From an uncultured Actinomycetes bacterium (lineage in GTDB: Bacteria > Actinomycetota > Thermoleophilia > Gaiellales > JAICJC01), in NCBI GenBank assembly GCA_963797175.1, contig CAWCOL010000009.1, positions 588,585 to 652,584 of the forward strand: a DNA stretch of 64,000 bases, written 5' to 3'. A program made the position numbers and the translations under genes. This document shows positions 8,693 through 45,988 of this stretch, piece by piece. The notes below the pieces were generated by a model. That model worked only from the letters and a program-made list of their open reading frames with translations. It was not told the DNA's origin and ran no database searches. Every line of letters begins with the position of its first letter. Positions within the stretch are counted from its first letter, which is position 1.

Positions 8693-9055
8693 CTATCGGC
8701 CGGCGATGACCGCGACCACGGCGGCGAGCACCAGGCCGTACGCCGCCGCCCGGTGCATCGTGCGGCGGGCGTGGTAGCCGGCAGCGAGGCGGGCAACCCG
8801 GGCCGCGGAGCCGGCGTTGGCGAGCGCGTCCAGCGGCGCCCGCGGCACGTCGGACAGCGTCCGTGCCTGCCAGTAGCCGATCATCCGGCGCGTCTCGGAC
8901 CGCGCCCGCATGCGGTGCACCGGCAGGCGCCGGTGCCGCTCCAGCCAGTAGGCGAGCGACTCGAGCGACTGCTCGACATCGGGTGCGAGCATCTCGCGGA
9001 CGATCCGGTCGTCGTCGGCACCGGCCATGCCGACATCGTAGGCGCTAGCAGCCAC
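8693..9055 (-). CDS. hypothetical protein with C-terminal transmembrane helix
   Basis: 120-aa ORF in an operon position between the hydrolase and oxidase genes. It has high G/C third positions and a hydrophobic C-terminus (AAAYGLVLAAVVAVIAG). No family recognised. Confidence 0.5.
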   Translation of the reverse strand: MAASAYDVGMAGADDDRIVREMLAPDVEQSLESLAYWLERHRRLPVHRMRARSETRRMIGYWQARTLSDVPRAPLDALANAGSAARVARLAAGYHARRTMHRAAAYGLVLAAVVAVIAGR

Positions 9056-10967
9056 GCCTGGGAATCCTCTCGCTCCACCTGCGGCTGTGGAACGGCTGTC
9101 CGTCGCGCGTCACGTCCAGCGTCAGCTCGACGGCGAACTCCTCGGCGGTGCAGGTGAAGCTGCCGCTCGCCTCGGCCATGCAGTCGAGGCCGGGCCGCGT
9201 CAGCCGGAACCGGGTCCGGCCCTCGACGTCGACCGACAGCGGGTCGTCCTCGCGCACCCGTGTCCGGTAGACGTGCCCCTCCTCGCACCGCACGCCCTCG
9301 CCGGGGAGCTCGAACGCCCACCAGTCCTCGGCGTCGATCCCGGCCCCGGCCGGATCCCGGACGACCTCCCACCGCGACGGCCGGTCGGCGACCTCGCCCT
9401 CCGTCCACGTCACCGGCACCATCTCGGTGCCCGGGGTGAAGGGCCTGGCGTCGTCGGGCAGACCGGGCAGCGTCAGCTCCACCGCGCCGGCCACCTCGAT
9501 CGGCGCCAGCACAGGCAACGGCCACAGGCACGGCCAGTCGTTGACCGCCACGGCGACGCGGATGCGATGGCCCGGCCGGAACCGCCACCCGGTCGCCATC
9601 AGATCGACGTCGACGGTCGCGTCGCCCTCACAGACGACGTTGAGCGCTCCACGGGTGACCGGCTGGGACTCGCCGGCCGGAGAGACGTCGTTCAGCTTGA
9701 CCGAGACGATCGCCCTCGGCCCCGGATGGCGGATCGCGAGCCGCACGCGAGGCGCGCCCAGCACCTCGACCGGCGCGTCCAGCGGTTCGGTCTCGAAGCA
9801 CGCGCTGCTCGCCTCGTCCTCGCGCTGGTCGCCGAACAGGCCGCTGTCCGGCGGCGGCGGGCACCAGTTGCCGGTGGCGAGGCCGACCGACGCCGAGGCG
9901 GGCGCGGTGCCGCCGACGCCCAGGCTCAGCACCGTGTCGGCAGCCGACCTCGGCCACGCCTCGCTCGCGAGCCACTCGCCCGAGACGCGGGCCTGCTCCA
10001 CCGCGGGGGAGTCGTGCTCCTCGACGAACACGACCGAGCGCGGCCGTGCCGGCTCGCCGCCGTCCGCGGCATCCGGGTCGAGGTGCCGCCGGAAGAAGCT
10101 GATCAGCTCGCCCATGAACGGGTAGCGCGGCTCGGGCACGCCGCGATCCGGCGCGACGTGCGTCCACGGGCCGGCCAGCAGCTGCCATGGGCAGCGCAGG
10201 CTCCGCGCCATCCGCAGCCCGGCCGTGCGGTAGCCGTCGTGCCAGCCCGAGACGATGAACACCGGGCACTCGATCCGCTCGAAGTCGGGCCGCAGCGAGC
10301 CGTTGCGCCAGTACGGCCCGTCGTGCTGCTCGGCCACCCAGCGCAGCACCCAGGGCGTCGTCGCGTCGATCCGCTCCCGCCAGCGGCGGTCGAACTCCGG
10401 CCCCTCCCCCTCGCCCGGCGGCAGCGCGTTCATGCCGATCATCCGGATCGGGTAGTTGCTGAGCTCGAACGCGGACAGCGCGCCGCCGTCGAAGTGCATG
10501 TCGTCGGTGTAGCGGTCGTCCGTCGCGTAGACCGGCGCGATCGCCCGCAGCGCCGGCGGGCGGCGGGCGGCGAGCTGGATGCAGGAGAAGCCGCCGTACG
10601 ACTTGCCCCACGACCCGACGTTGCCGTTGCACCACTCCTGCCGCGCCATCCACTCGACCACCTCGACCCCGTCCAGCTGCTCGGCCTCGGTGTACTCATC
10701 CACAGCAACGCCCTCCGAGCTCCCCGTGCCGCGCACGTCCAGCCGGACGCAGACGAAGCCGGCCTCGACCAGCACCAGGTTCTGGCCGCGGTCCTGGAGC
10801 GCGCGGAGGTCGTCCTTGCGGTAGGGGATGTGCTCGAGGATCGCGCCGAAGCGCCCTGGCCGGTTGGGGCGGTAGACGTCCGCCGAGAGGTGGATGCCGT
10901 CCCGCATCGCGATGCGGACGTCGCGGTCGACGATCACGCGCCCGTCCGCCAGCAGCAGCTCGCTCAC
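9045..10967 (-). CDS. CocE/NonD family hydrolase (S15 X-Pro dipeptidyl-peptidase-like), copy 1
   Basis: Motifs ILEHIPYRKDD, VRLDVRGTGSSEG, the nucleophile elbow GKSYGG and APVYATDDRYTDDMH. The preferred GTG at 10967 overlaps the upstream stop (GTGA). The alternative ATG at 10997 would give a 34-nt overlap. Confidence 0.88.
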   Translation of the reverse strand: MSELLLADGRVIVDRDVRIAMRDGIHLSADVYRPNRPGRFGAILEHIPYRKDDLRALQDRGQNLVLVEAGFVCVRLDVRGTGSSEGVAVDEYTEAEQLDGVEVVEWMARQEWCNGNVGSWGKSYGGFSCIQLAARRPPALRAIAPVYATDDRYTDDMHFDGGALSAFELSNYPIRMIGMNALPPGEGEGPEFDRRWRERIDATTPWVLRWVAEQHDGPYWRNGSLRPDFERIECPVFIVSGWHDGYRTAGLRMARSLRCPWQLLAGPWTHVAPDRGVPEPRYPFMGELISFFRRHLDPDAADGGEPARPRSVVFVEEHDSPAVEQARVSGEWLASEAWPRSAADTVLSLGVGGTAPASASVGLATGNWCPPPPDSGLFGDQREDEASSACFETEPLDAPVEVLGAPRVRLAIRHPGPRAIVSVKLNDVSPAGESQPVTRGALNVVCEGDATVDVDLMATGWRFRPGHRIRVAVAVNDWPCLWPLPVLAPIEVAGAVELTLPGLPDDARPFTPGTEMVPVTWTEGEVADRPSRWEVVRDPAGAGIDAEDWWAFELPGEGVRCEEGHVYRTRVREDDPLSVDVEGRTRFRLTRPGLDCMAEASGSFTCTAEEFAVELTLDVTRDGQPFHSRRWSERIPRRGC

Positions 10968-12886
10968 ACGCCGTCCCGCGGGATCCGCTCGCTCCACGTC
11001 CGCTCGGCGAAGGGCTCGCCGTCGGCCTGGACCTCGAGATGCAGGTCGACCAGGAACTCGTCCGCGGTCGCCGCGAACCGTGCCTTCGACAGCACGTCGG
11101 CGACGAAGCCGTCACGGGTGAGGACGTAGTGGCAGCTGCCCCACGTGCTCGCCGTCAGCGGGTCGTCGTCCGCCGCCAGCGCCCAGCGCTGGTTGGCCTC
11201 CGTCACCGACCAGCCCTCATCAGGAGCCTCGTCGCGGTACGCGGTCGAGACGGTGATCCCCGAGCGGCCGGCGTGCACATCGGTGACCACCTTCCAGTCC
11301 GACTCGCCGGTCGCCTCGATGCCCGGCTGCGCGATCTCGACCAGCCGGCCCTCCGGCGGTGTGAACGGCACGGCATCCGCGGGCAGCCCGGGCAGTACCA
11401 GCTCGACCGGCGAGGTGATCGCGAGCGGCGCGACCTGCGGCAGCGGCCACAGGTTGGGCCAGTCGCTGACCGCGACCGCGACCCGGATCCGGTGGCCGGC
11501 CGCGAACCGCCAGCCGGTGGTCATCAGCGGCAGCTCGAGCTCGGCGTCGCCCGCCACCTCGAGGTTGACGGCCGCACTGGTCACGTGCTGGGACGAGCCG
11601 TCCGGTGCCAGGCTCTGGAGCTTGACCGAGACCAGGGTGCGGGGCCCGGGGTGGCGCAGCGAGAACCGCACCACCGGCTCGCCGAACACCGCCACCGGCT
11701 CGGCCAGCGGCTCGCCGTCGAAGGTCGCGCTGAGGGCGTCGTCGCGGCGCTGGTCGAGGAACTGGCCGGTGTGCGGCGGCGGCGGGCACCACTGGCCGGT
11801 CATGATCCCCGCGGTCACGCTGGGCGGTGCGACCGCGGGCGCTCCCAGGGTGACGGTGCGACGCTCGACGCCCTCCGGCCAGCGCTCCGACGCCAGCCAC
11901 TCGCCCGACACCGTCTCGTGCGGCCGGGCCGGCGAGTCGGGGCTGCCGATGAAGAACACCGACCGCGGCCGGTGCGGCGCGTCGGTGGGCGGCGCGTCGT
12001 CCAGGTGGCGGTGGAAGAACCGCGCCATCTCGGCCAGGAACGGGTAGCGCGGCCCGGGCACGCCGCGGTCGGGCAGCGTGTGGCACCACGGCCCGGCGAG
12101 CAGCTCCCACGGCGCCTCCAGCCGCTCGCCCATGCGCAGCGCCGCCGTCCGGTAGCCATCCCGCCACCCGGCGCAGATCAGCACCGGGCAGGCGATGCGC
12201 CCGAAGTCGGGCCGCAGCGAGCCGTTCCGCCAGTAGGGCCCGTCGTGCTGGCGGCGGATCCATTCGACCACCCACGCCGGGGTCGTCTCGATCCGCTCCC
12301 GCCACGCCCGGTCGAACTCGGGGCCGCGTTCGCCCAGCGGCGGCAGCACGTTCATCGCGATCATCGAGGTCGGGTAGGCGGGCAGGCTGCTGGCGTTGAG
12401 CGCGCCGCCGTGAAAGTGCATGTCGTCGGTGTAGCGATCGTCGGTCGCGTAGACCGGCGCGATCGCCCGCAGCGCCGGCGGCCGCAGCGCCGCCAGCTGG
12501 ATGCACGAGAACCCGCCGTAGGAGACGCCCCACGAGGCGACCGCCCCGGTGCACCACGGCTGGGCGGCCATCCACGCGACGACCTCGAGGCCGTCCTGCT
12601 GCTCCGCTCGCGTGTACTCGTCCACGGCGACGCCCTGCGAGCTGCCCGTGCCGCGCACGTCAAGGCGCACGCAGGCGAAGCCGGCCTCGACCAGGAAGCT
12701 GTTCTGGGAGCGGTCCTCGATCGCCCGCAGGTCGTCCTTGCGGTAGGGGATGTGCTCCAGGATCGCCGGGTAGCGGCCGGGCGCGCTGGGGCGGTAGACG
12801 TCAACCGAGAGCCGGACGCCGTCGCTCGCGACCACCCCCACGTCGCGCTCGAGGATCACGTCCCCACCGCCGAGCACGACCGTCAC
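10964..12886 (-). CDS. CocE/NonD family hydrolase, copy 2 (tandem paralogue)
   Basis: Same motifs as copy 1 (GVSYGG). By eye it is about three quarters identical to copy 1 over the catalytic domain. The start is uncertain (GTG at 12886 or 12907; the ORF is open to 12973). Confidence 0.85.
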   Translation of the reverse strand: MTVVLGGGDVILERDVGVVASDGVRLSVDVYRPSAPGRYPAILEHIPYRKDDLRAIEDRSQNSFLVEAGFACVRLDVRGTGSSQGVAVDEYTRAEQQDGLEVVAWMAAQPWCTGAVASWGVSYGGFSCIQLAALRPPALRAIAPVYATDDRYTDDMHFHGGALNASSLPAYPTSMIAMNVLPPLGERGPEFDRAWRERIETTPAWVVEWIRRQHDGPYWRNGSLRPDFGRIACPVLICAGWRDGYRTAALRMGERLEAPWELLAGPWCHTLPDRGVPGPRYPFLAEMARFFHRHLDDAPPTDAPHRPRSVFFIGSPDSPARPHETVSGEWLASERWPEGVERRTVTLGAPAVAPPSVTAGIMTGQWCPPPPHTGQFLDQRRDDALSATFDGEPLAEPVAVFGEPVVRFSLRHPGPRTLVSVKLQSLAPDGSSQHVTSAAVNLEVAGDAELELPLMTTGWRFAAGHRIRVAVAVSDWPNLWPLPQVAPLAITSPVELVLPGLPADAVPFTPPEGRLVEIAQPGIEATGESDWKVVTDVHAGRSGITVSTAYRDEAPDEGWSVTEANQRWALAADDDPLTASTWGSCHYVLTRDGFVADVLSKARFAATADEFLVDLHLEVQADGEPFAERTWSERIPRDGV

Positions 12887-12954
12887 CGGGCCTCCATGCG
12901 CGGCGACACTAGCACCACGGGATCGGGCCGGAGGCGGTCGGTACACTCTCCGCG

Positions 12955-14434
12955 ATGGAGGCGGTCGCGGCACTGTCGGGGCGGGGACTGATGCCCGGCG
13001 TGCTCGACGCGATCGCCCGGGATGACCTGCCGGTCGAGATCAGCGCGGACGCGCTCGACCGCATCCGCGACGCGCAGGCCTGCCTCGACCGCGCCGTCGA
13101 GGCAGGGACGGCGGTGTACGGCGTGACCACCGGGCTCGGCCACCGGGTGACCATGCGGATCGACCCGCCCGGCGGCGGCGAGCACGCGCTGCGCACGCTC
13201 CGCGGCAGGGCGGTCGCCGTCGGCCAGCCGCTGCCCCGCGAGGTCGTTCGCGCAGCCATGGCGGCCCGCCTGAACGGCCTCTGCGCCGGCCGCTCCGGCG
13301 CCGGCGAGGAGGCGGCGCAGGCGCTGGCCGCAATGCTGAACGCTGGCGTCCACCCGATCGTGCCGCGGCACGGCTCGATCGGCGCGGCCGACCTCTGCCT
13401 GCTCGCCCACATCGGCCTGGTGGTCGCAGGCGAGGGCGAGGCCGAGCTGGACGGCGAGCGGATGAGCGGCGCCGCGGCGCTGGCGGCCGCGGGCATCGCC
13501 GCGGCCCGGCTGGGGCCGCGGGACGGACTGGCGCTGTGCAGCGCCTCGTCGGTGTCGGCCGGCACGGCCGCGCTCGAGCTCGTCCGCGCGCGCCGCCTGC
13601 TGGAGTGGCTCCAGTCGGCCGCGGCGCTCTCGATGGAGGGATTCCGGGCGCAGCCTGACGCCGATCGACCCGCGGGTGGTCGCCGCACGGCCGGCACCCG
13701 GGCAGGAGTGGGCCGCCGCCGGGCTGCGGCAGCGGCTCGCCGGCGGAGCGCTGACCGAGCCGGGCGCGGCGCGGCGGCTCCAGGACCCGCTCAGCTTCCG
13801 TTGCGCCGCATCGATCCACGGCTCGCTCCATGCCGCGCTCGACCTGCTCGAGGCCGCGGTCGAGCCGGAGCTGAACGGCGCCGGCGACAATCCGCTCGTC
13901 CTGGCGGCTGACGATCTCGTCGTCTCCACAGGCAACTTCCACACCTCCGCACTCGCGCTGGCCGCCGACGCGACGGCGATCGCGATCGCCCAGGCAGCGG
14001 CGCCCGCAGCCGAGCGGCCCGGCCGGCTCTGCAACGCCGCACTCAGCGGGCTGCCCCCCAACCTCACCCGCGGGCCGGCCGGCTCGGCAGGCATGGCACC
14101 GCTCCAGAAGCCGGCGCACGCGCTGGTCAGCGCCATCCGCCAGCGCGCCGCCCCGCTCGCGATCGACCCCAGCGTGACCGCAGAGGGTGTCGAGGACGAC
14201 GCCACCAACGCCACGCTCGCCGTCTTCCGCCTGACCGACCAGCTCGACCTCCTGGCCCAGCTGATCGCGGTCGAGTTGGTGTGCGCCGCGCAGGCGGTGG
14301 ACCTGGCCGAGCCGGGCAGGTTGGGCGCCGCCACCGCCGAGACGCACGCCGCCGTACGGGCCCTCGTCCCGCCGCTCGCCGACGACCGCCCGCTGAGCGC
14401 CGACATCGCAGCCGTGCTCGCGATTGTGACGTGA
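12955..14434 (+). pseudogene. histidine/aromatic amino acid ammonia-lyase family protein, frame interrupted near 13650 and lacking the Ala-Ser-Gly MIO triad
   Basis: The N-terminal half (YGVTTGLG..HGSIGAADLCLLAH..LSMEGFRA) is in one frame. The C-terminal half (SLTPIDPRVVAARPAPGQ..QDPLSFRC..GDNPLV..GNFH) is in the +1-offset frame. The two halves are collinear with the HutH/PAL layout. Confidence 0.75.
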
Positions 14435-19671: not shown

Positions 19672-20444
19672 TCGCCACCGCCTCCGGCCAGGGCGGGCGC
19701 TGCCGTGCCGCGCAGAAGGCGCACCATGACGCGGCTGACCAGGACGTAGAAGACGATCAGCCCGAGCAGGGCGAGATCGGTACCCGGCCAGTCCACCCCC
19801 GCTCCCTCGGCGCCCCAGAACGTCCCGAACGAGGTCAGCATGATGCCGACCGAGTACTTCATCGTGTTCTCGGGGACGCGCGCGAGCGGCGCCCGCGCCA
19901 TCACGCCCGCGCCGGCGACCAGGAGCACTGCGGCGACCGCGCCCGCGGCCGCCAGCGGCACGCTGCCCTGGTTGCTGCCGAACGTGACCACGATGAAGGC
20001 CACCTCCAGCCCCTCCAGCAGCACGCCCTTGAACGAGACCAGGAAGGCGTAGCCGTCGATGCCCTCGCGCCCGGTGGCGCCCGCGGCCGCCGCCAGCTCG
20101 GCCTCGTGGCGGAAGATCGCGTCCTCGTCGTGCAGCGCCTTGAGGCCGCTCGAGCGGAGGATCGCCTTGCGCAGCCACTGGAGGCCGAAGACGAGCAGCA
20201 GGCCACCGACCACGACCCGCAGTACCGAGAGCGGCAGGGCGGTCAGCGCCGGCCCCAGCGCCGCGACGATGACGGCGAGGCACAGCGAGGCCGCGCCGAC
20301 GCCGATCAGCGCCGAGCGCCAGCTCCGCGTCATGCCGACGGCGAGCACGATCGTCAACGCCTCCACCGCCTCGACGGCGCTGGCCAGGAAGCTGGACAGC
20401 ACCAGCAGAAGGGCGTTCACCGTGTGCCCACCGCGGCCGTCCAC
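19668..20444 (-). CDS. integral membrane protein (COG4280-like)
   Basis: About 250 aa and polytopic, with an internal duplication signature (EAVEALTIVLAVG / LEGLEVAFIVVTFG). The start is the GTG at 20444 or 20420. Confidence 0.7.
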   Translation of the reverse strand: MDGRGGHTVNALLLVLSSFLASAVEAVEALTIVLAVGMTRSWRSALIGVGAASLCLAVIVAALGPALTALPLSVLRVVVGGLLLVFGLQWLRKAILRSSGLKALHDEDAIFRHEAELAAAAGATGREGIDGYAFLVSFKGVLLEGLEVAFIVVTFGSNQGSVPLAAAGAVAAVLLVAGAGVMARAPLARVPENTMKYSVGIMLTSFGTFWGAEGAGVDWPGTDLALLGLIVFYVLVSRVMVRLLRGTAAPALAGGGGE

Positions 20445-20514
20445 CGCACGTCGTGGGCCGCTCTCCTCACACGGCGATCGTACCCAAGGCCCGCAGCCGA
20501 GCGTGCACCGTGCC

Positions 20515-20553
20515 GCGCCGCCGCTCCGATCCGCTTACCGGGAACGGCGGCGC
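20515..20553 (-). terminator. hairpin 15 nt downstream of the small peptide ORF
   Basis: GCGCCGCCG (20515-20523) pairs with CGGCGGCGC (20545-20553), a 9-bp GC stem with a 21-nt loop. There is no U-tract, which is common in high-GC genomes. Confidence 0.35.
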
Positions 20554-20567
20554 GCAGCCTGACTGCA

Positions 20568-20657
20568 CTACGGTCCCCACTCCTTGCCGGCGGCGACCCA
20601 GGCCGAGGCCAGGGTGGCAATTGCGAGGACGACCGACGGGCGGATGTACCTGTACAT
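20568..20657 (-). CDS. 29-aa signal-peptide-like small ORF (candidate exported pro-peptide)
   Basis: ATG at 20657 with AAGGAGG 8 nt upstream. The peptide is MYRYIRPSVVLAIATLASAWVAAGKEWGP. G/C is at 26 of 29 third positions. It is not in the ORF track because it is shorter than 60 aa. Confidence 0.5.
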   Translation of the reverse strand: MYRYIRPSVVLAIATLASAWVAAGKEWGP

Positions 20658-20675
20658 GGAGCTCCCCTCCTTGTC

Positions 20676-20740
20676 GTTGCCTATTGGCAACATTCGCAGA
20701 ACCGGTTGCCACGTGCAAGCGTCAGTTGCCAACGGGCAAC
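20676..20740. promoter_or_regulatory. operator-like array of GTTGCC-N4-GGCAAC inverted repeats
   Basis: Perfect copies at 20676-20691 and 20725-20740, and a degenerate copy (GTTGCC-ACGT-GCAAGC) at 20705-20720. All lie within the 95-bp divergent intergenic region. Confidence 0.6.
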
Positions 20741-20752
20741 GAGTCTCGTAGG

Positions 20753-22063
20753 ATGCTGCGAGTGGGCCGGGTCAAGCCGCAGCACGTCGACGATCCCGCC
20801 GAATTCGGGCGCCGTATCCACCGTCTCCGCAAGGGGCGCGGCCTGTCGCTCCGCGAGGTCTGCTTCCCCGGCTGCTCGCCCTCGTTCCTGTCCCGGGTCG
20901 AGGCCGGCCGGCGCGTGCCGAGCGCCACGGTCGTGATCGAGCTGTCGCGGCGCCTGGCGGTGGATCCCGAGGAGCTGCTCGGAAGGCGGCTGGACGGCCG
21001 CCTCTCGGAGGCCGACCTGATGGCGGCGGAGGTCTCGGCGCGGCTGGGCGAGGAGGGCGCCGAGGAGCGTCTCGACGACCTGCTCGCGCTGGCCCGGCAG
21101 CTGCGCGACCGCAACGGCGAGAGCCGCGTGCTGGAGGCGCTCGGCCTGCTCGCGATCGACCAGCGCCACGACGCCCGGGCGGTCGAGCTGCTGGAGGCGG
21201 CGCGCGCCGCCGACGGCTCACGCGGGCCGCGCGAGCGGCCGGCGCTCTACCGCGCCCTGGGCCGAGCCTACGCCGGCGGCGGCGACCTCGGCCACGCCAT
21301 CGCGGTGCTGCAGGAGGCGTTCGACGACGCCCGCGCCGACCCGCCCGATCCCGCCCTGATCGCCCAGTTCGGTACCTACCTGGCGAACGCGTACACCGAC
21401 GCCGGGCGGTTCACCGACGCCGTCACCGTCCTGTCCGGCGTGATCAAGCACGAGCGGGAGCTCGCCCCGGGGAACGCCCTGCGGCTGGAGTGGGCGCTGG
21501 CCCGCACCTACGCCGAGGACGGCAGGCTCTCGATCGCCGAGACCTACACCCGGCGGGTGCTCGCCCGCCTGGACGCGGTCGAGGACGAGCGGCTGATCGG
21601 CCACGCCCACCTGCTGCTCGCCGGCGTGCTTCTCGACCAGCACCGGGTGGATGACGCCGTCCCCCACCTCGACCAGACCGAGACGCTGCTGAATGGCTCG
21701 GAGCCGGTCGGCGGGCTGCGGCTCTCGCTGGAGCGGGCGCGTGCAGCCCTCGAGCTGGGCGACACCGATGAGGCCGAGGAGCGCGCGCGCCAGGCGCTGC
21801 GCCGCACCGAGGCGACCGAGCCGGGCGAGGCCGGCATCGCCTACACCGTCCTCGCCCGCGTCGAGATGGAGCGGGGCGACCTCGACGATGCCCGGTTTCT
21901 GTGCCGACAGGCGATCGACCTCATGACCGGCACCACGCCCCCGCACTACCTCGCCTCCTGCTACGAGCTGCTCTCCACGATCGAGGAGCGCTCCGGCAAC
22001 CTGCAGGCGGCGATCGAGGCCCTGCGGGCGCGGCCCGCCCGCGCCGCCAACGAGCGCGACTAG
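20753..22063 (+). CDS. XRE-family HTH transcriptional regulator with large TPR-like helical repeat domain
   Basis: The N-terminal HTH is FGRRIHRLRKGRGLSLREVCFPGCSPSFLSRVEAGRRVPS. About 350 aa of Ala/Leu/Arg-rich repeats follow (..YRALGRAYAGGGDLGHAIAVLQEA..). I chose the ATG at 20753. The longer track ORF from 20453 would cross the operator array. Confidence 0.85.
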   Translation: MLRVGRVKPQHVDDPAEFGRRIHRLRKGRGLSLREVCFPGCSPSFLSRVEAGRRVPSATVVIELSRRLAVDPEELLGRRLDGRLSEADLMAAEVSARLGEEGAEERLDDLLALARQLRDRNGESRVLEALGLLAIDQRHDARAVELLEAARAADGSRGPRERPALYRALGRAYAGGGDLGHAIAVLQEAFDDARADPPDPALIAQFGTYLANAYTDAGRFTDAVTVLSGVIKHERELAPGNALRLEWALARTYAEDGRLSIAETYTRRVLARLDAVEDERLIGHAHLLLAGVLLDQHRVDDAVPHLDQTETLLNGSEPVGGLRLSLERARAALELGDTDEAEERARQALRRTEATEPGEAGIAYTVLARVEMERGDLDDARFLCRQAIDLMTGTTPPHYLASCYELLSTIEERSGNLQAAIEALRARPARAANERD

Positions 22064-22099: not shown

Positions 22100-22867
22100 G
22101 TGACCGGGACGCGGATCGCACACGCCATCGCCCAGCACGGGGTCGCCGCGGGCGCGATGCTGTTCGAATTCGACACGCCGGGCGTGATGCGGATCCTGGC
22201 GGCCGCCGACGTCGACTTCGCGATCGTCGACCTCGAGCACACCGGCTGGGACGCCGGGTCGCTGCGGACGCTGTGCGCGACCGGCCGCTCCACCGGTGTG
22301 CATACGATCACCAGGGTGGTGCGGGCGCAGTACCCGCTGATCGCACCGGCGCTGGACGCCGGTTCGCGCGGCGTGATGGCCCCGATGGTCGAGTCGCGGA
22401 TCGAGGCCGAGCTGCTGGTCGAGGCCGCGAAGTACCCGCCGATCGGCCGGCGCGGGTTCGGCATGCTGTTCGGCGACGAGCTGGCGGACGGCCCCGCGGC
22501 CTACGCCGAGCGCGCCAACCGTGACAACGTCGTCGTCGCCCAGATCGAGTCGCCGGCCGGCATCGAGAACGCCGACGCGATCGTCTCCGTGCCCGGCGTG
22601 GACATCGTCTGGCTGGGCCAGTTCGACCTCTCGCTGTCGCTCGGCATACCCGGGCAGTTCGACCATCCCCGGTTCACCGAGGCGGTGGATCACCTGCTGG
22701 CGGCCTGCAGGAACCACGGCCGGCCGCTGGGCCAGCTGGTCGGCTCCGCCGCCGAGGGCGCCGAGCTGCGGCGCCGCGGCTTCCAGGTGCTGGCCTACGC
22801 CGACGTCTGGGTGTTCGAGCAGGCGCTGCGGAACGGGCTGGACGCCCTCCGCCATCCGGCACCGTGA
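22100..22867 (+). CDS. HpcH/HpaI aldolase / citrate lyase beta-like family protein
   Basis: Motifs DFAIVDLEHTGWD, MAPMVES, YPPIGRRGFG, VVVAQIESPAGIENADAI and VDIVWLGQFDLSLSLG. Confidence 0.88.
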   Translation: MTGTRIAHAIAQHGVAAGAMLFEFDTPGVMRILAAADVDFAIVDLEHTGWDAGSLRTLCATGRSTGVHTITRVVRAQYPLIAPALDAGSRGVMAPMVESRIEAELLVEAAKYPPIGRRGFGMLFGDELADGPAAYAERANRDNVVVAQIESPAGIENADAIVSVPGVDIVWLGQFDLSLSLGIPGQFDHPRFTEAVDHLLAACRNHGRPLGQLVGSAAEGAELRRRGFQVLAYADVWVFEQALRNGLDALRHPAP

Positions 22868-39816: not shown

Positions 39817-40416
39817 ATGACGCGGGGCAGAGGGCTACTGACAGTGGTGCTGGCAGGACTGCTGCTGCTGTCGACGGCGGCTCCGGCACTCGCCGACAAC
39901 GCCCCACCACCCCCACCACCGCCGCCCGGTGGTGGCGGCGGGAGCAGCGGCGGAGGCTCCTCCGGGGGCGGTTCCTCCGGCGGCGGCTCCAGCGGAGGAT
40001 CGTCGACGACAACCACCACCAGCAGCTCCGGCTCCTCAGGCTCCAGCTCCACGACCAGCACAGGCTCCAGCTCCAGCAACACGACACCGCCTCCGGCCAC
40101 GCACCACAAGAAGCCGAAGGCGCACAAGAAGACCGTCCACAAGGCGAAGCCCAAGCCGCCCGTTCCGCTCCCCAGCGGCCAGCCCGCCGACCACCACGCC
40201 GAAATCGCCAGCAGCCTTCCCACAGTGACAGCGATCTCCACCATCTCGAGCGCGACCGTCGCGACCCCGGCGACGCCGTCGTCGATGACCTCGAACGCCG
40301 TCTGGATCGTGGTGGGCGCAGCCGCCGTCCCGCTCGTCCTGATCGCCGCCTTCGCCGCGCTCCGGCCGTCATTCCGACGGCGGGCCGCCCAGCGCAGCAG
40401 GCCCGTCGCCCGTTAG
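39817..40416 (+). CDS. low-complexity secreted protein with C-terminal membrane anchor
   Basis: Signal peptide MTRGRGLLTVVLAGLLLLSTAAPALA. It continues with P8, (GGGSS)n, a Ser/Thr tract, a basic HHKKPKAHKKTVHKAKPKPP tract, a C-terminal TM helix and an RRRAAQRSR tail. Confidence 0.7.
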   Translation: MTRGRGLLTVVLAGLLLLSTAAPALADNAPPPPPPPPGGGGGSSGGGSSGGGSSGGGSSGGSSTTTTTSSSGSSGSSSTTSTGSSSSNTTPPPATHHKKPKAHKKTVHKAKPKPPVPLPSGQPADHHAEIASSLPTVTAISTISSATVATPATPSSMTSNAVWIVVGAAAVPLVLIAAFAALRPSFRRRAAQRSRPVAR

Positions 40417-40429
40417 ATCGAGGAGCAGC

Positions 40430-43400
40430 ATGAAATCTCGCCGCCGTATCGTCGCGCTCGTCGCCGTCCTCTCTGGGCTCGCCCTGGCCGCCCAGAGCGC
40501 CCAGGCGACCGTCGGGCCTGTCGGCTTCGACCCACCCACCGGGGTGGCGTTCGGCGCGCATGCGGCCGGCACGACGACGGCCCAGACGGTGACGCTGACG
40601 AACGAGGGCGACGAGGATCTCGTGTTCGACGCGGCCGGCGTCTCGCTGTCCGGCACCAACGCCGACCAGTTCGCGCTCGCGAACGACACCTGCTCCGGCG
40701 CGACGGTGCCCGCCGGACTGACCTGCACCTTCGACGTGCGGTTCTCGCCCACCACGCACGTGGACGCGACCGCGGCCGTCTCCTTCTCGGCCAACGTTGC
40801 CGTCGCCGACTACCCGCTGTCCGGCACCGGCCAGGCCGGCGAGATCACCGAGAGCGCGATCCCCGTGTTCCCCAAGCGCGACGTCGGCACCGTCAGCCCG
40901 CCTCGCAACGTCACCATCCGCAACGTGGGCAACATCCCGGTCACGGTGGGCACACCGTCCACGGGCAACGCCGCGTTCGTCATCCAGAGCACGACCTGCG
41001 CCGGCGCCGTGCTCGCCCCCAACGCCATCTGCCGCGTGATGCTGGCCTTCGCGCCGCTCAGCCCCGGCGTTTTCAACGACGCGCTGACCGTCCCCAGCGA
41101 CGCCAACACGGCGATCGGGGCGCTCTCCGGCACCGGCATCCAGGGCGCGGTCACGATCACGCCCGCATCGCACGCGCTGACGTTCACCTCGCAGGTCGGC
41201 GTGGCCAGCGGTGAGCAGCAGATCAAGCTGAAGAACACCGGCAACTCGTCGGTGACGATCACCGCCCACACCACGCCGGGCGGCGATTTCACGGTCAGCT
41301 CCGACACGTGCACCGGCGTCACCCTGGCCGGCGCCGCGACCTGCGCGATCGGCGTCAAGTTCACGCCCAGCGGGCCCGGCGCGGCCACGGAGCAGTCGAT
41401 CGACATCTCCTACACCGGCGCGGCCGACACCCACCAGACCGTCACCCTCGACGGCACCGGCACCCAGGGCACCGTCAACGTCTCGACCACCGCGATCACG
41501 TTCCCGGACACCCCGGTCGGGCAGACCAGCATGAGCATCCCGATCACGGTCACGAACAACGGCAGCGCCGACGTGACCATGGGCACGGCGAGCCTCCCCG
41601 CCGGCGACTTCCAGATCGCGACCGACAACTGCTCGGGGAACACGGTGCATGCGGGCGGCGACACCTGCGCGATCCGCGTCAGCTTCACGCCGTCGGCCGC
41701 AGGCGCCTCGGCGGAGCGCACCGTCACGATCGCCTACACCGGCGCCCCGGGTTCGCCCCAGGCCGTCACGCTGGACGGCAACGGCATCCAGGGCACCGTC
41801 GGCATCAACCCGGCCGACGGCAACATCGACTTCCCCGACACGGTGGTCGGGCAGAGCAGCAACGACGCGATCGTCGTCACCAACAACGGCAGCGCCACGG
41901 TGCACATCACCGGGCCGATCGCACAGCCCGGAGCGCCGTTCAGCATCGTCGCCACCGCCTGCGCCAACAAGGACCTCGCGCCGGGCGGCTCGTGCACGAT
42001 CCCCGTCACCTTCACCCCCACCGCGCGCGGCGCGGCAGCGACCGGCACCGTCACGGTCGCCTACACCGGCGCGCCCGGCTCGCCTCAGAGCGTCACCCTG
42101 GACGGCAACGGCCTGCGCGGCGTGCTGGGCACCAACAAAACTGCGATCGCGTTCCCGCCGACCGCGCTCGGCACCACCTCGAACAGCAGCGTGACCGTCT
42201 CGAACACCGGTGACGCCGACATGCACGTGGCGGCGCCCGCCGCCCCGGGCGGCGACTTCTCGGTGGACGCCAGCAACTGCACCGCCGCCGTGCTGCACCC
42301 GGGCGACACCTGCTCGGTGGGCGTCACCTATGCGCCCTCGGCGATCGGGGCTTCGGCAGGCAAGACGCTGACGATCACCTCGGCCGACGCGGACGGCTCG
42401 CCCAAGACGGTCAACCTGACGGGCTCCGGCACCGCCGGCGGCACCGTCGGCGTCACGCCGGGCACGCTGCCCTTCGGCCAGGTGCCGGTGACCACCGACA
42501 GCGCCGGCCAGACCGTGACCGTCAAGAACTCCGGCACCGCGCCGGTGACGATGGGCGCCGTCAGCGCGTCGGGCAGCCAGTACCAGGTGACCAACGGCTG
42601 CGCCGGCAAGACGCTCGCAATCAGCGGCGCCGCCGCTTCCTGCACGATCACCGTCGCGTTCGCGCCGACCGCGACCGGCGCCGACCCCCAGACGCTGACG
42701 ATCGCCTACGCCGGCGCCGACACGACGCAGTCCACGGTCGCACTGACCGGCACCGGCACCCAGGCCGTGATCGGCGTCTCGCCGGGGACCATCCCCTTTG
42801 ACCCGCAGCCGGTCGGCACGACCAGCCCCGCGCAGACGATCACCGTCACCAACAGCGGCACCGCCGACACGACGATGGGCACCGTCTCGCTCCCGTCCGG
42901 GCCGTACGCGATCACCGCCGACAACTGCTCGGGCAACGTCGTCCATGCGGGCGGCGACACCTGCATCGTCAAGGTCGCGTTCACCCCGACCGTGAACGGC
43001 GCCGCGCCCAGCCGTCTGCTCTCGATCCCGTTCTCGGGCGGCGGCGCGGCCAACTCGCCGAAGACGGTGAACCTCTCCGGCAGCGGCACGCCGGGCGGCA
43101 GCATCGCCGTCACGCCGGGCACGCTCGCCTTCGGCCAGGTGCCGGTCGGGACGACCAGCGCCGGCCAGACGGTCACCGTCACGAACTCGGGCACCGACGT
43201 CGTCGTGATGGGCGCCGTCGCGCTCCCGGCCGGCTCCGACTACCAGCTGACGAACGGCTGCGCGGGCGTCACGCTGGCCACCAGCGGCGCAGCGGCCAAG
43301 TGCACGATCACCGTCGCGTTCAAGCCCACGGCGATCGGCACCGACCCCGACACGCTGACGGTCAAGTACACCGGCGCCGACACGACGCAGGCCACTGTCG

Positions 43401-45988
43401 CGCTGACCGGCACCGGGACGCAGGCCGTGATCGGCGTCGCGCCCGGCACGATCCCGTTCGGCCCCCAGGCGGTGGGCACCACCAGTGCGGCGCAGACCGT
43501 GACCGTGACCAACAGCGGCAGCGCCGACGCGACCATGGGCACCGTCTCGCTGCCCTCCGGGCCCTACAGCATCACGGCGGATACCTGCTCGGGCAACGTC
43601 GTCCACGCGGGCGGCGACACCTGCACCGTGAAGGTCGCGTTCACGCCGACGGTCAGCGGTGCGGCGCCCGGCCGCCTGCTCTCGATCCCGTTCTCCGGCG
43701 GCGGCTCGACCGGCTCGCCCAAGACGGTGAACCTCTCCGGCACCGGCACGCCCGGCGGCAGCATCGGTGTCGCGCCGACCTCGCTCGCATTCGGCCAGGT
43801 GCCGATCACGACCACCAGCGCCGGCCAGACAGTCACGGTCACCAACTCGGGCACCGACGTCGTCGTGATGGGCACCGTGACAGTTCCCACCGGCTCCGAC
43901 TACGTGCTCACCAACGGCTGCGCCGGCAAGACGCTGGCGACCAGCGGGGCGGCGGCCAAGTGCACGATCACCGTCGCGTTCGCACCGACCGCGACCGGGG
44001 CCGACCCGGACGCGCTGACGATCCGCTACACCGGCGCCGACACCACGCAGAACACGGTGGCGCTGACCGGCACGGGCACCCAGGCCGTGATCGGATCCTC
44101 GCCGGCAGCGATCGCCTTCCCGGACACCGACCTTGGCACCACCAGCCCCGCCCAGACGATCACCGTCACCAACAGCGGCACGGCCGACGCCACCATCGGC
44201 ACCGTCGCGCTGCCGACGGGCGCGTTCGGCGTCACAGCCGACACATGCACCGGCGCGGTCATCCACGCGAGCGGCGGCACCTGCACGGTCAAGGTCGCAT
44301 TCACGCCGACCGCGGTCGGCGCGGCGCCCGGCCGCAGCGTCACGATCCCGTACTCGGGCGGCGGCGCCGCGGGCACCAACCGGACGGTCGCGCTGACCGG
44401 CAACGGCACGCCCGGCGGCACGGTCACGATCGACAAGACCGCGCTCGACTTCGGCAACGTCAAGGTGGGGACGACCAGCGTCGCCCAGACCGTGACGCTC
44501 AAGAACACCGGCACCTCGACCGTCGCCATCAGCTCGGGCGGCGCCGTGTTCCAGCCGCAGACCGCGCCGTACACGATGACGGACGGCTGCGCCGGCAAGA
44601 CGCTGGCCGTCAGCGGCGCCGCGGCGTCCTGCACCATCACGGTCAGCTTCAAGCCGACCGACGCCGTCGACGACTCGAGCCGGCTCTCGATCGGCTACTC
44701 GGGCGCGGACGACGGCGGCAAGCTGGTCGACCTGAGCGGCACCGGCACCGTGCCGGCGCTGACGTTCTCACCGGCCACCGGGCTCACCTTCTCGACCCCC
44801 GTCGGCTCGACCAGCGCGGCCCAGACGCTGACCGTCAAGAACACCGGCAACGCCGTCATGAACCTCTCCGGCGTGACGCTGACCGGCACGAACAAGACGC
44901 TGTTCCACATCAGCGCGACCACCTGCGGCACCACCATCGCCGCGGCCGGCAGCTGCACGGTCGGCGTCACGTTCAGCCCGACGTCCTCGGCGCTGGCCAC
45001 CGCCTCGATCCAGGTCGGGGACGACGCCGCCGGCGCGCCGCACCTTGCGAACCTGAGCGGCACCGGCACGGTGCCCGGCATCCAGACCGCGCCCACGTCG
45101 CTGACGTTCGACCCGCTCCAGGACGGCCTGGTCTCGGTCGCGAAGCCGGTGACGATCAAGAACACCGGCGCTGCGCCGCTCGTGATCGGCACGATCACCG
45201 TGACCGGCGCCAACAACCTCAGCTTCATCATCAAGAGCGGCGGCGACGCCTGCAGCGGCAAGACGATCGCGCCGGCCGGCACGTGCATCGTCCAGGTGCA
45301 GTTCCGGCCGCGCCTGATCTCGGCCAAGGTCGCCTCACTCTCGATCCCCAGCAACGCGGGCTCCACCGCGAACGTCGCGCTGGCGGGCAACTCGATCGCC
45401 CCGCCGCCGGTGACGGCGCTGAAGGGCGCGGTCGGCTGCACCACCGCACAGCTGACCTGGACGGCGCCGAGCGCCCCCCAGTTCAACCGGGTCGTCGTGG
45501 TGCGGAACCGCGACCACGAGCCGACGTCGCCCACCGACGGCACCGTGCTCCCCCACGGCACCGGCACGCTGAGCGACTCCAAGCTGGTGATGCTGAACAC
45601 GTACCACTACGCCGTCTTCGCGGTGTACACGGCCTACGACGACGCGGAGCGGCTGATCAACGCCAAGCCGGCGGTGATCGGCCTGTTCACCAGCCGCGTG
45701 TGCTCCCCGATGAACGGCGCCAGCATCGCCGACCTGACGCCGCTGGTGGACTGGAACCCGTTCACGGCCGGCAGCACGTATGCGATCCGGCTGGTCAACT
45801 CGGGCGGGACGACGATCAACGTCAAGTACCCGACGATGACGCAGTTCCAGATCCTCGCGTCCTGGAGCTACGGCGGCGCGACGCGGAGGCTCGGCAGCGG
45901 GCAGACGTACACCTGCTACGTCTACGCCTACAACAGCCAGTACCCGGTGGGCCGGCTGATCGGCTTCACCAAGTTCACCGAGCGCTGA
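40430..45988 (+). CDS. giant secreted repeat protein: 15 choice-of-anchor-D (ASH/HYDIN-like Ig-fold) repeats + FN3-like and unknown C-terminal domains
   Basis: Signal peptide MKSRRRIVALVAVLSGLALAAQSAQA. Fifteen repeats of about 105 aa follow, each with a V(T/K)NxG...C.G..L..G..C.I.V.F.P pattern. The ATG at 40430 follows GAGGAG, 13 nt after the upstream stop. Confidence 0.9.
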   Translation: MKSRRRIVALVAVLSGLALAAQSAQATVGPVGFDPPTGVAFGAHAAGTTTAQTVTLTNEGDEDLVFDAAGVSLSGTNADQFALANDTCSGATVPAGLTCTFDVRFSPTTHVDATAAVSFSANVAVADYPLSGTGQAGEITESAIPVFPKRDVGTVSPPRNVTIRNVGNIPVTVGTPSTGNAAFVIQSTTCAGAVLAPNAICRVMLAFAPLSPGVFNDALTVPSDANTAIGALSGTGIQGAVTITPASHALTFTSQVGVASGEQQIKLKNTGNSSVTITAHTTPGGDFTVSSDTCTGVTLAGAATCAIGVKFTPSGPGAATEQSIDISYTGAADTHQTVTLDGTGTQGTVNVSTTAITFPDTPVGQTSMSIPITVTNNGSADVTMGTASLPAGDFQIATDNCSGNTVHAGGDTCAIRVSFTPSAAGASAERTVTIAYTGAPGSPQAVTLDGNGIQGTVGINPADGNIDFPDTVVGQSSNDAIVVTNNGSATVHITGPIAQPGAPFSIVATACANKDLAPGGSCTIPVTFTPTARGAAATGTVTVAYTGAPGSPQSVTLDGNGLRGVLGTNKTAIAFPPTALGTTSNSSVTVSNTGDADMHVAAPAAPGGDFSVDASNCTAAVLHPGDTCSVGVTYAPSAIGASAGKTLTITSADADGSPKTVNLTGSGTAGGTVGVTPGTLPFGQVPVTTDSAGQTVTVKNSGTAPVTMGAVSASGSQYQVTNGCAGKTLAISGAAASCTITVAFAPTATGADPQTLTIAYAGADTTQSTVALTGTGTQAVIGVSPGTIPFDPQPVGTTSPAQTITVTNSGTADTTMGTVSLPSGPYAITADNCSGNVVHAGGDTCIVKVAFTPTVNGAAPSRLLSIPFSGGGAANSPKTVNLSGSGTPGGSIAVTPGTLAFGQVPVGTTSAGQTVTVTNSGTDVVVMGAVALPAGSDYQLTNGCAGVTLATSGAAAKCTITVAFKPTAIGTDPDTLTVKYTGADTTQATVALTGTGTQAVIGVAPGTIPFGPQAVGTTSAAQTVTVTNSGSADATMGTVSLPSGPYSITADTCSGNVVHAGGDTCTVKVAFTPTVSGAAPGRLLSIPFSGGGSTGSPKTVNLSGTGTPGGSIGVAPTSLAFGQVPITTTSAGQTVTVTNSGTDVVVMGTVTVPTGSDYVLTNGCAGKTLATSGAAAKCTITVAFAPTATGADPDALTIRYTGADTTQNTVALTGTGTQAVIGSSPAAIAFPDTDLGTTSPAQTITVTNSGTADATIGTVALPTGAFGVTADTCTGAVIHASGGTCTVKVAFTPTAVGAAPGRSVTIPYSGGGAAGTNRTVALTGNGTPGGTVTIDKTALDFGNVKVGTTSVAQTVTLKNTGTSTVAISSGGAVFQPQTAPYTMTDGCAGKTLAVSGAAASCTITVSFKPTDAVDDSSRLSIGYSGADDGGKLVDLSGTGTVPALTFSPATGLTFSTPVGSTSAAQTLTVKNTGNAVMNLSGVTLTGTNKTLFHISATTCGTTIAAAGSCTVGVTFSPTSSALATASIQVGDDAAGAPHLANLSGTGTVPGIQTAPTSLTFDPLQDGLVSVAKPVTIKNTGAAPLVIGTITVTGANNLSFIIKSGGDACSGKTIAPAGTCIVQVQFRPRLISAKVASLSIPSNAGSTANVALAGNSIAPPPVTALKGAVGCTTAQLTWTAPSAPQFNRVVVVRNRDHEPTSPTDGTVLPHGTGTLSDSKLVMLNTYHYAVFAVYTAYDDAERLINAKPAVIGLFTSRVCSPMNGASIADLTPLVDWNPFTAGSTYAIRLVNSGGTTINVKYPTMTQFQILASWSYGGATRRLGSGQTYTCYVYAYNSQYPVGRLIGFTKFTER
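42420..44650 (+). repeat. tandem ~660-nt (two-domain) super-repeat inside the giant gene, about 3.4 copies
   Basis: The landmark TTCGGCCAGGTGCC recurs at 42473, 43130 and 43790. Long runs of near-identical DNA lie between units (for example GGCACCGACGTCGTCGTGATGGGC in two units). Confidence 0.85.

Follow-up and report, generated by a model that had tools for sequence, protein, structure and literature searches.

What is the function of a 29-codon open reading frame (ORF) that lies back to back with the gene of a helix-turn-helix (HTH) regulator in an uncultured soil bacterium? The question is raised by a 64,000-nucleotide stretch of contig CAWCOL010000009.1 (assembly GCA_963797175.1; Gaiellales, Thermoleophilia, Actinomycetota), referred to here as the window. 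In it, a small ORF on the minus strand, the mini-gene, is divergent from a gene whose predicted product, the regulator, combines an XRE-type HTH with tetratricopeptide repeats (TPR). A sequence-only reading of the window had proposed that the two form a peptide-sensing cassette of the RRNPP type. Comparison with relatives marks the mini-gene as a genuine gene that is conserved with the HTH-TPR regulator throughout the soil order Gaiellales. As to its function, we favour an autoregulated peptide/receptor cassette in which the peptide would be the regulator's own ligand, RRNPP-style and outside the Firmicutes. We give this proposal a little better than an even chance, and consider it less likely that the window peptide acts as an extracellular, density-dependent signal.

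The mini-gene and its linkage to the regulator

The translation of the mini-gene in the sequence-only reading is exact, and the consensus AAGGAGG Shine-Dalgarno sequence that it placed 8 nt upstream of the ATG was located at 20672-20666. The bias of third codon positions toward G or C, 26 of 29, was likewise read from the sequence. The GC-rich hairpin past the stop codon exists as described, but it is longer than the 9 bp first reported: its arms are 14 nt each (20514-20527 and 20541-20554), with a complementarity of 93%. The hairpin is a probable factor-independent terminator that closes the mini-gene unit; a consensus terminator scan did not call it because it has no T-run. Pfam and NCBIfam searches with four peptide variants identified no family. 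Peptides of this type have already been deposited by gene callers in public protein collections as 'hypothetical protein'.

The relatives of the cassette, all from metagenome-assembled genomes (MAGs) or metagenomes, were assembled in two sets: 71 genome loci plus the window (675 kb) and 72 metagenome loci (197 kb). The regulator family occurs in MAGs of Gaiellales with 46-68% identity and two or three paralogues per genome. Homologous regulator loci with enough upstream DNA, drawn from Gaiellales MAGs and soil metagenomes, numbered 137. At 75 of these, remote relatives included, the regulator is accompanied by a small ORF that has a Shine-Dalgarno sequence and ends in W-(G/S)-P or W-G-H. The synteny comparison suggested in the sequence-only reading thus came out in favour of a small ORF with a conserved C-terminus kept next to regulator orthologues. 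Searching the 675 kb in six frames for [GA][KR]xW[GSA]?P followed by a stop codon returned 38 matches, and all 38 lay on the strand opposite to the regulator, 124-208 nt upstream of it. The same was true of strand for 27 of 27 matches in the metagenome set (197 kb). When relaxed to W[GSA]?P-stop, the pattern matched 65 times in the 38.6 kb of windows upstream of regulators versus 73 times elsewhere in 866 kb; approximately 16 of the latter are upstream of partial, unindexed copies of the regulator, leaving ~57. These counts correspond to an enrichment of ~26-fold upstream of regulators. The pairing of the mini-gene with the regulator is beyond chance by far. Searching plasmids and phages with the regulator using tblastn gave no match; there is therefore no sign of a mobile element, and the cassette is chromosomal.

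Selection on the peptide was evaluated using 15 distinct long-form (group A) sequences. The ratio of nonsynonymous to synonymous polymorphism (pN/pS) was 0.38 over the last 10 codons versus 0.80 for the N-terminal two thirds. The C-terminal residues are thus under purifying selection, the N-terminus keeping only its signal-peptide character. A GGAGG-type Shine-Dalgarno sequence precedes 14 of the 15 variants (L103 has GAAGGGG only). The long forms start with ATG or GTG and differ in length by whole codons, the indels being multiples of three. Several synonymous codons are in use at the conserved Gly, Lys, and Pro positions, and each of the three stop codons is represented; what is constrained is therefore the peptide and not the DNA. 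The stop codon is TAA in 42 of 63 mini-ORFs, as compared with 19 of 456 (4%) long ORFs rich in G/C at third codon positions (GC3-rich) that served as background from the same loci, and TGA is depleted. This bias suggests selection for efficient release of the peptide after its C-terminal proline.

These data also bear on the possibility that the mini-gene is an open frame arising by chance in GC-rich DNA between genes, or a non-coding small RNA. Spurious ORFs are abundant in high-GC genomes and, within groups B and C, the two clades of eight-codon forms described below, the unit is nearly invariant at the nucleotide level. Between clades, however, codons change synonymously or conservatively and the amino-acid motif persists. 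Moreover, the Shine-Dalgarno sequence and the start codon are conserved, and the motif is exclusive to this position. Finally, there was no Rfam match (a scan of positions 20300-20900 gave two matches at chance level only), and the Shine-Dalgarno sequence and ORF are unpaired in consensus folds. We regard a chance frame or small RNA as barely credible.

The mini-gene is disrupted or missing at some loci. Some apparent frameshifts (L011) coincide with homopolymer runs and could stem from errors of assembly, while L014 has also lost the Shine-Dalgarno sequence and looks truly decayed. At L009, L010, L013, L040, and L050, where the mini-gene has been lost, the regulator is followed by a convergent longer ORF, of ~760-910 codons as called, which clusters with the regulator family. 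One clade (L043, L053-L055, L058-L061, L063, L065-L067, and L106-L112) has no ORF, a co-directional gene for an M24 (Xaa-Pro) peptidase upstream, and a convergent M16 peptidase gene downstream. It may be no coincidence that proline-specific peptidase genes adjoin the gene of a receptor with relatives that are paired with X-Pro-terminated peptides. In P0122, a near-identical relative of the window peptide that ends in ...AAGKERGP, the otherwise invariant Trp is replaced by Arg, through an error in sequencing or else in a naturally occurring loss-of-function allele.

Long, eight-codon, and remote peptides

The long forms begin with a basic stretch, continue with 15-18 residues that carry no charge and a c-region of small residues, and end in a short, conserved C-terminus. 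Based on rules for charge, uncharged run, and (-3,-1) sites, the N-terminus is signal-peptide-like in 18 of 20 long variants, comprising the window peptide and 17 of 19 others, with an n-region charge of +1 to +4. Cleavage at the compatible (-3,-1) sites of these variants would release 5-10 residues. The sequence-only reading had described a Sec-type pro-peptide cleaved after A-S-A to release WVAAGKEWGP. The shape of a pro-peptide was borne out, but the conserved part is limited to the last 5-8 residues, G-[K/x]-x-W-G-P. Similarly, the A-S-A site does not occur in all group-A variants, whereas a (-3,-1)-compatible site before GK does. A lipoprotein was considered and dropped, as the peptides have no lipobox.

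Export did not hold as a general property of these peptides: two sister clades have eight codons and no signal, and one of the remote relatives has a hydrophilic N-terminus. The eight-codon ORFs occupy the same position as the long ORF and encode MYAGRLWP, MYGGRIWP, or MYAGKLWP in group B and MDGGKAWP or MPGGKAWP in group C. All of them are preceded by an AAGGAG Shine-Dalgarno sequence and a TTGAC -35 box, are followed by a hairpin, and are located between a convergent FAH-family gene and the regulator. Their hairpins are weaker than those of long-form and remote mini-genes, which are strong but unrelated in sequence from locus to locus; group B shows compensatory changes in the hairpin. No in-frame upstream start was found for the eight-codon ORFs. 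These genes are among the shortest conserved ORFs and fall below the reach of any minimum-length gene finder. A type I toxin was dropped as a candidate since the eight-codon forms cannot be membrane toxins.

In the regulator tree, groups B and C are monophyletic sisters nested among long-form lineages, and the long form is scattered over deep branches on either side of the root. The long form is therefore probably ancestral, and the short form a truncation. The 8-mers consist of Met and the conserved C-terminal core of the long form. Because the eight-codon genes keep only this core, the C-terminal 5-8 residues would be the active part of the peptide and could function in the absence of export, which is not universal. 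Individual genomes carry both long-form (A) and eight-codon (B) cassettes.

Remote relatives were drawn from 263 clusters at E ≤ 1e-30 and are likewise from Gaiellaceae; their peptides are listed in Table 1. Across all forms, the peptides share an invariant W-(G)-P at their free C-terminus, while positions -4/-5 differ by clade: KE, KD, KG, KL, TN, NN, PP, RL, and KA. Variable positions on a fixed W-(G)-P anchor are the pattern that would be expected of a family of receptor-specific ligands.

A tiny gene with a conserved K/R-x-W core could also encode the precursor of a cofactor or of a ribosomally synthesized and post-translationally modified peptide, for example a Lys/Arg-Trp cross-linked one, with the enzymes encoded elsewhere and the HTH-TPR protein regulating the pathway. 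Minimal precursor genes occur in Actinomycetota, as exemplified by the 5-codon biarylitide precursor genes of actinomycetes. Nevertheless, in none of the clades do the conserved neighbors include a radical-SAM enzyme, a P450, a cyclase, or a dedicated transporter, and the K/R is not conserved in remote members, which have TN, NN, PP, or PV. A modified product of this type has, in our estimation, only a slim chance of being correct.

Regulator, operators, and flanking genes

The sequence-only reading had placed a 436-residue XRE-HTH and TPR-like protein 95 bp from the mini-gene. The architecture stands, but the start does not. Homologues begin with MGR..., and ATG 20753, the start chosen by gene callers, would add three residues that they lack. 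Based on these N-termini and on a TAGGAT -10 box that ends 7 nt before GTG 20762, the regulator probably starts at this GTG, 104 bp from the mini-gene, an arrangement that implies a leaderless mRNA. The regulators of groups B and C have the same layout of -10 box, 7 nt, and GTG. Pfam matches of the regulator comprise HTH_31/HTH_3 at residues 17-75 as well as TPR_12, TPR_16, and other TPR families. Inspection of its sequence by eye revealed no signal peptide and no transmembrane segment. In the AlphaFold2 model (pLDDT 90), the HTH is followed by 18 helices that form nine TPR repeats. Approximately 16 residues with charged or aromatic side chains show no or almost no variation in 80 aligned homologues (e.g., R97, E128, R171, R251, Y253, H286, R328, and E411). 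According to the helix limits of the model, these residues belong to the first, groove-forming helix of each repeat. Invariant groove residues are consistent with a conserved ligand anchor.

The region between the two genes had been described as carrying an operator-like palindrome array, and indeed it contains two perfect 16-mers, O1 and O2, and a partial third copy (Table 1). The centers of O1 and O2 are 49 bp apart, and TTGCCN4GGCAA occurs without mismatch nowhere else in the 64-kb window. The peptide promoter was predicted by alignment with orthologous loci, which have TTGACA-N17-TAGCGT, TACTGT, or TAGTGT at the same place. Each of the long-form loci has a TTGACn-N17-TAnnGT promoter whose -10 box abuts O1. 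In 11 group-A loci, the O1-equivalent palindrome is centered 24-33 bp upstream of the peptide start codon. The O1-O2 spacing was 48-52 bp, or about five helical turns, in all 11 group-A loci examined, with O2 being weaker and lying over the regulator -35 region. Groups B and C have other repeat motifs (TTCTGTC / GACAGAA) at the equivalent places, which fits the diverged HTH domains of these groups. The two palindromes of the window overlap the peptide start region and the regulator -35 box, where the regulator would bind. The positions of these putative operators suggest repression of the peptide promoter, not activation, and their spacing suggests two dimers on one helix face repressing both promoters.

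Table 1. Predicted features of the cassette in the window, and related peptide genes at other loci (L numbers)
Feature	Position	Strand	Description	Basis
Mini-gene	20568-20657	-	29 codons plus TAG stop; encodes MYRYIRPSVVLAIATLASAWVAAGKEWGP; conserved C-terminal core G-K-x-W-G-P	Translation, orthologous ORFs, selection pattern
Shine-Dalgarno AAGGAGG	20666-20672	-	8 nt before mini-gene ATG	
GC-rich hairpin	20514-20554	-	14-bp stem, 13-nt loop; starts 13 nt past mini-gene stop	
Putative operator O1	20676-20691		Perfect 16-bp palindrome GTTGCCTATTGGCAAC; abuts peptide-promoter -10 and covers predicted transcription start	
Predicted peptide promoter	20690-20718	-	-10 GAATGT (20695-20690), 17-nt spacer, -35 TTGCAC (20718-20713)	Alignment with orthologous loci
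Partial third operator-like copy	20705-20720		GTTGCCACGTGCAAGC; 9 of 12 specified bases	
Putative operator O2	20725-20740		Perfect 16-bp palindrome GTTGCCAACGGGCAAC; overlaps regulator -35 TTGCCA (20726-20731)	
Regulator -10 box TAGGAT	20749-20754	+	7 nt before GTG 20762	
Regulator	20762-22063	+	XRE-type HTH and nine TPR repeats; 433 residues from GTG 20762	Pfam, homologue N-termini, AlphaFold2
Eight-codon genes, groups B and C	L021-L052 and L089-L125 (e.g., L021:3865-3891, L025:1056-1082)	-		
Remote peptide	L144		MKARLVALCVVLGGLASLVGDLPWGH	
Remote peptide	L146		...EGAGPPWGP	
Remote peptide	L147		MEPRLTPLRPPSPASSRPGGGSGGIWP; hydrophilic N-terminus	
Remote peptide	L148		...LLASGPVWP	
Remote peptide	L149		...GGVGPAWP; co-directional with regulator	
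Remote peptide	L150		...MPGEGPPWP	

A working model of the cassette would be as follows. The mini-gene would be transcribed from its own promoter to its own hairpin. The basic, hydrophobic N-terminus of the 29-residue pre-peptide would direct it into or across the membrane, where cleavage at the small-residue c-region would yield a short peptide, ...G-K-E-W-G-P-COOH. After re-import, this peptide would be the ligand of the TPR superhelix of the cytoplasmic XRE-HTH regulator; in the eight-codon paralogues, peptide and regulator would meet directly in the cytoplasm. Without ligand, the regulator would sit as two dimers on O1 and O2, five helical turns apart, occluding the peptide promoter at the start site and its own promoter at the -35 box. 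A bound ligand would alter oligomerization or DNA binding and so set the level of both genes. We infer the binding of the peptide by the TPR domain, its export and processing, the sign of regulation, and the downstream regulon. A ligand would explain the linkage to a TPR receptor, a C-terminal anchor combined with clade-specific positions, the coexistence of cassettes, and the deletion of an export signal while the core was kept.

The resemblance of the TPR domain to RRNPP receptors was evaluated using both structure and sequence, as the sequence-only reading had proposed, with a divided outcome. In a Foldseek search of the PDB, the best bacterial TM-scores were those of apo NprR (5dbk_A; TMq 0.58, TMt 0.69), followed by the phage phi3T Rap with its pheromone (0.57 and 0.67). 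The search also matched APPBP2, a TPR protein of eukaryotes, in complex with an RxxGP C-terminal degron (8jal; TMq 0.56). Among viral structures, Foldseek returned only generic TPR or Sel1 proteins of giant viruses, and neither AimR nor Rap. By sequence profile, NprR was the sole RRNPP receptor matched through its TPR region (E 2e-3). PlcR, ComR, and Rgg were matched through the HTH, the Rgg match running ~50 residues beyond it. The Pfam and NCBIfam matches of the regulator include no Rgg or related model; together with its length, 433 residues versus ~285, this ruled out membership in the Rgg/SHP subfamily. A regulator of the STAND/MalT or AfsR/SARP type was ruled out as well, as the match is confined to the TPR_MalT repeat region, an ATPase domain is absent, and DNA binding is assigned to a domain of the XRE type. 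Overall, the predicted architecture matches that of RRNPP receptors, an NprR-like HTH and nine TPR, but homology to them is not established because MalT and NsdA outscore NprR by sequence.

Several results weigh against a peptide/receptor cassette. First, the Foldseek E-values are equal for the RRNPP receptors (NprR and the phi3T Rap) and generic TPR proteins. In profile comparisons with the PDB, the TPR domain matches MalT (1hz4, E 4e-8) and kinesin light chain (5e-8) better than NprR (2e-3 to 6e-3). The regulator also scores 71.7 bits against the nearest curated family, the actinobacterial NsdA family (NCBIfam NF053720; cut-off 75), with residues 108-285 aligned to positions 228-413 of the 432-position profile. 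We take it to be a member of a related actinobacterial TPR lineage, as judged from these scores, and not of the NsdA family itself. Second, 62 of the 137 regulators have no ORF, among them the whole clade linked to an M24 peptidase. Third, in one third of the group-A variants the -1 position of the A-S-A site is Val, and the processing site is therefore uncertain. Fourth, no Opp-type importer was found among the window ORFs that were scanned, which are a subset of all its ORFs. The one solute-binding protein found in the window is of the SBP_bac_8/SBP_bac_1 type, not the family typical of Opp-type oligopeptide-binding proteins. Finally, conservation of the W-(G)-P anchor goes far beyond what is usual for ligands across RRNPP families, and an eight-residue cytoplasmic ligand controlled by its own receptor would have no obvious sensory input.

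Some of these observations would suit a regulator that senses a small molecule or a protein partner and controls the mini-gene as its output, the product being a small secreted or membrane-active effector such as an antimicrobial, a membrane modulator, or a signal for a different receptor. The operators are on the peptide promoter, the long forms resemble secreted or membrane peptides, and many regulators persist without an ORF. Moreover, the TPR domain is closer by sequence to MalT/NsdA-type regulators, which are not known to bind the peptide of a neighboring gene. An eight-residue product without a signal is nevertheless a poor effector, yet its conserved core is exactly kept. In addition, variation at -4/-5 tracks the receptor clades, which fits co-evolution with the adjacent receptor better than with an unrelated target. 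We consider an effector unlikely and retain the ligand as the preferred reading.

The flanking genes differ between loci. Downstream of the mini-gene are an OFeT-like gene in the window, an MFS transporter gene in L001 and L002, and a GlsB-like gene in L007; in L008, L012, L016, and L019, the next gene is convergent. Groups B and C have a convergent FAH-family gene next to the mini-gene. Of nine group-A loci, five have a downstream membrane-protein gene that is co-directional. The regulator's other neighbor likewise differs. The conserved module, as judged from gene order, is the regulator plus the mini-gene, independent of the flanking genes. The sequence-only reading had named the COG4280-like membrane operon and the HpcH-type aldolase as targets; neither is conserved as a neighbor, so nothing marks them as such. 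For the same reason, we dropped the idea that the ORF serves the OFeT-like membrane protein encoded downstream as a subunit or leader.

The hairpin and the co-directional genes are relevant to a cis-acting function, in which a nascent chain ending in W-(G)-P would stall the ribosome when it reaches the stop codon, as TnaC and SecM do, and thereby control read-through of the hairpin into downstream genes, the hydrophobic N-terminus sensing force in a MifM-like way. The final two or three residues and the stop are invariant even among very divergent loci, the hairpin is 13 nt past the stop, a co-directional membrane-protein gene lies downstream in the five group-A loci, and a C-terminal Pro slows termination. 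However, groups B and C and four group-A loci have a convergent gene next, leaving nothing to attenuate, and the downstream genes that are present are not homologous. The hairpin also does not keep a fixed distance from the stop. The stop codon itself varies, with a strong bias to TAA, the best-terminating codon, and not to one release-factor-specific codon. Finally, arrest would leave the link to the TPR regulator unexplained. An arrest peptide seems to us quite improbable, though not to the point of being negligible.

Other genes near the cassettes are as follows. In groups B and C, the cassettes are often found among genes of the aromatic-acid catabolism type (e.g., L033:2948-3778 and upstream), which may reflect synteny only. 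These genes encode an HpaB-like monooxygenase, an FAH-family hydrolase, a carboxymuconolactone-decarboxylase-like protein, and an acyl-CoA dehydrogenase, the names being based on reading the sequences and not on a family search. In the window, an HpaI/HpcH-type aldolase is encoded at 22100-22867 (Pfam and NCBIfam). Two tandem genes for S15 X-Pro dipeptidyl-peptidases (Peptidase_S15 and PepX_C) are located at 9045-13039 on the minus strand, ~7.5 kb from the cassette. At 40343-45988 on the plus strand, a 1,881-residue ORF contains repeated ASH/HYDIN-type Ig-like domains; its antisense frames are open and GC3-rich. The product is probably a large surface protein unrelated to the cassette.

Comparison with known systems

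RRNPP systems have been described as characteristic of Firmicutes, whereas the signals attributed to Actinomycetota are small molecules (PMC10075063). Our literature search for an RRNPP-like or HTH-TPR plus mini-peptide cassette in Actinobacteria/Actinomycetota found no description, which is absence of evidence only. More broadly, the Gaiellales may hold a large, lineage-specific RRNPP-like family with two or three paralogous cassettes per genome, whose ligands combine a W-(G)-P-COOH anchor with variable specificity positions and whose ancestral secreted pre-peptide was cut in some clades to an eight-codon gene for the mature ligand. We advance this proposal tentatively, at somewhat less than even odds. 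If it is correct, peptide signaling via cytoplasmic HTH-TPR receptors, deemed a hallmark of Firmicutes and mobile elements, reaches another phylum. The eight-codon ligand genes would be among the shortest functional genes and would document a natural switch from public (secreted) to private (cytoplasmic) signaling; these eight-codon paralogues represent a natural experiment on a secreted signal turning cell-internal. Such genes are overlooked by gene finders and RRNPP detectors that require a signal peptide or a minimum ORF length. The Gaiellales are abundant, dominant, and almost uncultured soil Actinomycetota, and the proposal would provide concrete synthetic peptides to try on them, such as GKEWGP, GRLWP, and GKAWP.

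The design of the cassette resembles that of PrgX/PrgQ (iCF10) on pCF10 of Enterococcus faecalis in comprising a cytoplasmic HTH regulator, a helical-repeat peptide-binding domain, and an adjacent ligand gene. PrgQ is a peptide of ~22 residues with a basic, hydrophobic N-terminus, the active part being the C-terminal heptapeptide. PrgX occupies a strong site, XBS1, and a weaker one, XBS2, that overlaps the promoter, and represses the promoter of the peptide gene, prgQ (PMC5552905). This two-site geometry resembles that of O1 and O2 over the promoters. The differences are nevertheless considerable. PrgX is plasmid-borne, from a Firmicute, and ~317 residues long, with operators 91 bp apart and a second, chromosomally encoded inducer peptide. 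In contrast, the Gaiellales cassette is chromosomal and actinobacterial, with a regulator of 433 residues and nine TPR, operators 48-52 bp apart, and a peptide ending in W-G-P.

Rgg/SHP and ComR/ComS of streptococci also pair an XRE-HTH and TPR-like receptor with an adjacent, often divergent, peptide gene of 17-35 codons. Their peptides have a basic N-terminus, a hydrophobic body, and the mature peptide at the C-terminus. Some families have conserved anchor residues, such as the WW motif of type II XIPs. To our knowledge, no eight-codon ligand gene has been reported in these systems. The receptors differ from the window regulator in their length (~285-300 residues), their phylum, and the family models, none of the Rgg models matching the regulator. 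Short peptides of the Rgg/SHP and ComS type are exported by PptAB and not via a classical signal (PMC5167397, PMC7564271), which is a precedent for exporting short peptides that lack a signal, and ComS can act inside the producing cell without export (PMC6211226). The intracellular action of ComS on ComR parallels the signal-less eight-codon forms.

NprR of the NprR/NprX system of the Bacillus cereus group has the architecture and size of the regulator, an HTH and nine TPR in ~420 residues, and provided the best bacterial structural match. Its similarity to the window regulator by sequence is, however, no better than that of generic TPR proteins. NprX is a 43-residue Sec-dependent pro-peptide that is encoded downstream and co-directionally and whose active part is internal.

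A free C-terminus enclosed by a TPR superhelix is also the mode by which APPBP2 (RxxGP), Hop/CHIP (EEVD), and PEX5 (SKL) recognize C-terminal peptides, and the K-x-W-G-P core of group A fits the APPBP2-type [R/K]-x-x-G-P. These receptors are eukaryotic and have no DNA-binding domain; common descent is unsupported, and the likeness shows a mechanistic possibility only.

A precedent outside the Firmicutes for a genetically encoded mini-peptide ligand is PatS/HetR of heterocyst-forming cyanobacteria. The patS gene has 13-17 codons and no secretion signal, and the C-terminal penta- or hexapeptide of its product binds a transcription factor. It differs from the cassettes described here in that HetR is not an HTH-TPR protein, patS does not form a cassette with hetR, and the peptide moves between the cells of a filament. 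Relative to all of these systems, what is known in the Gaiellales cassette is the RRNPP-type design, and what is new is the phylum, the W-(G)-P anchor, and the eight-codon ligand genes.

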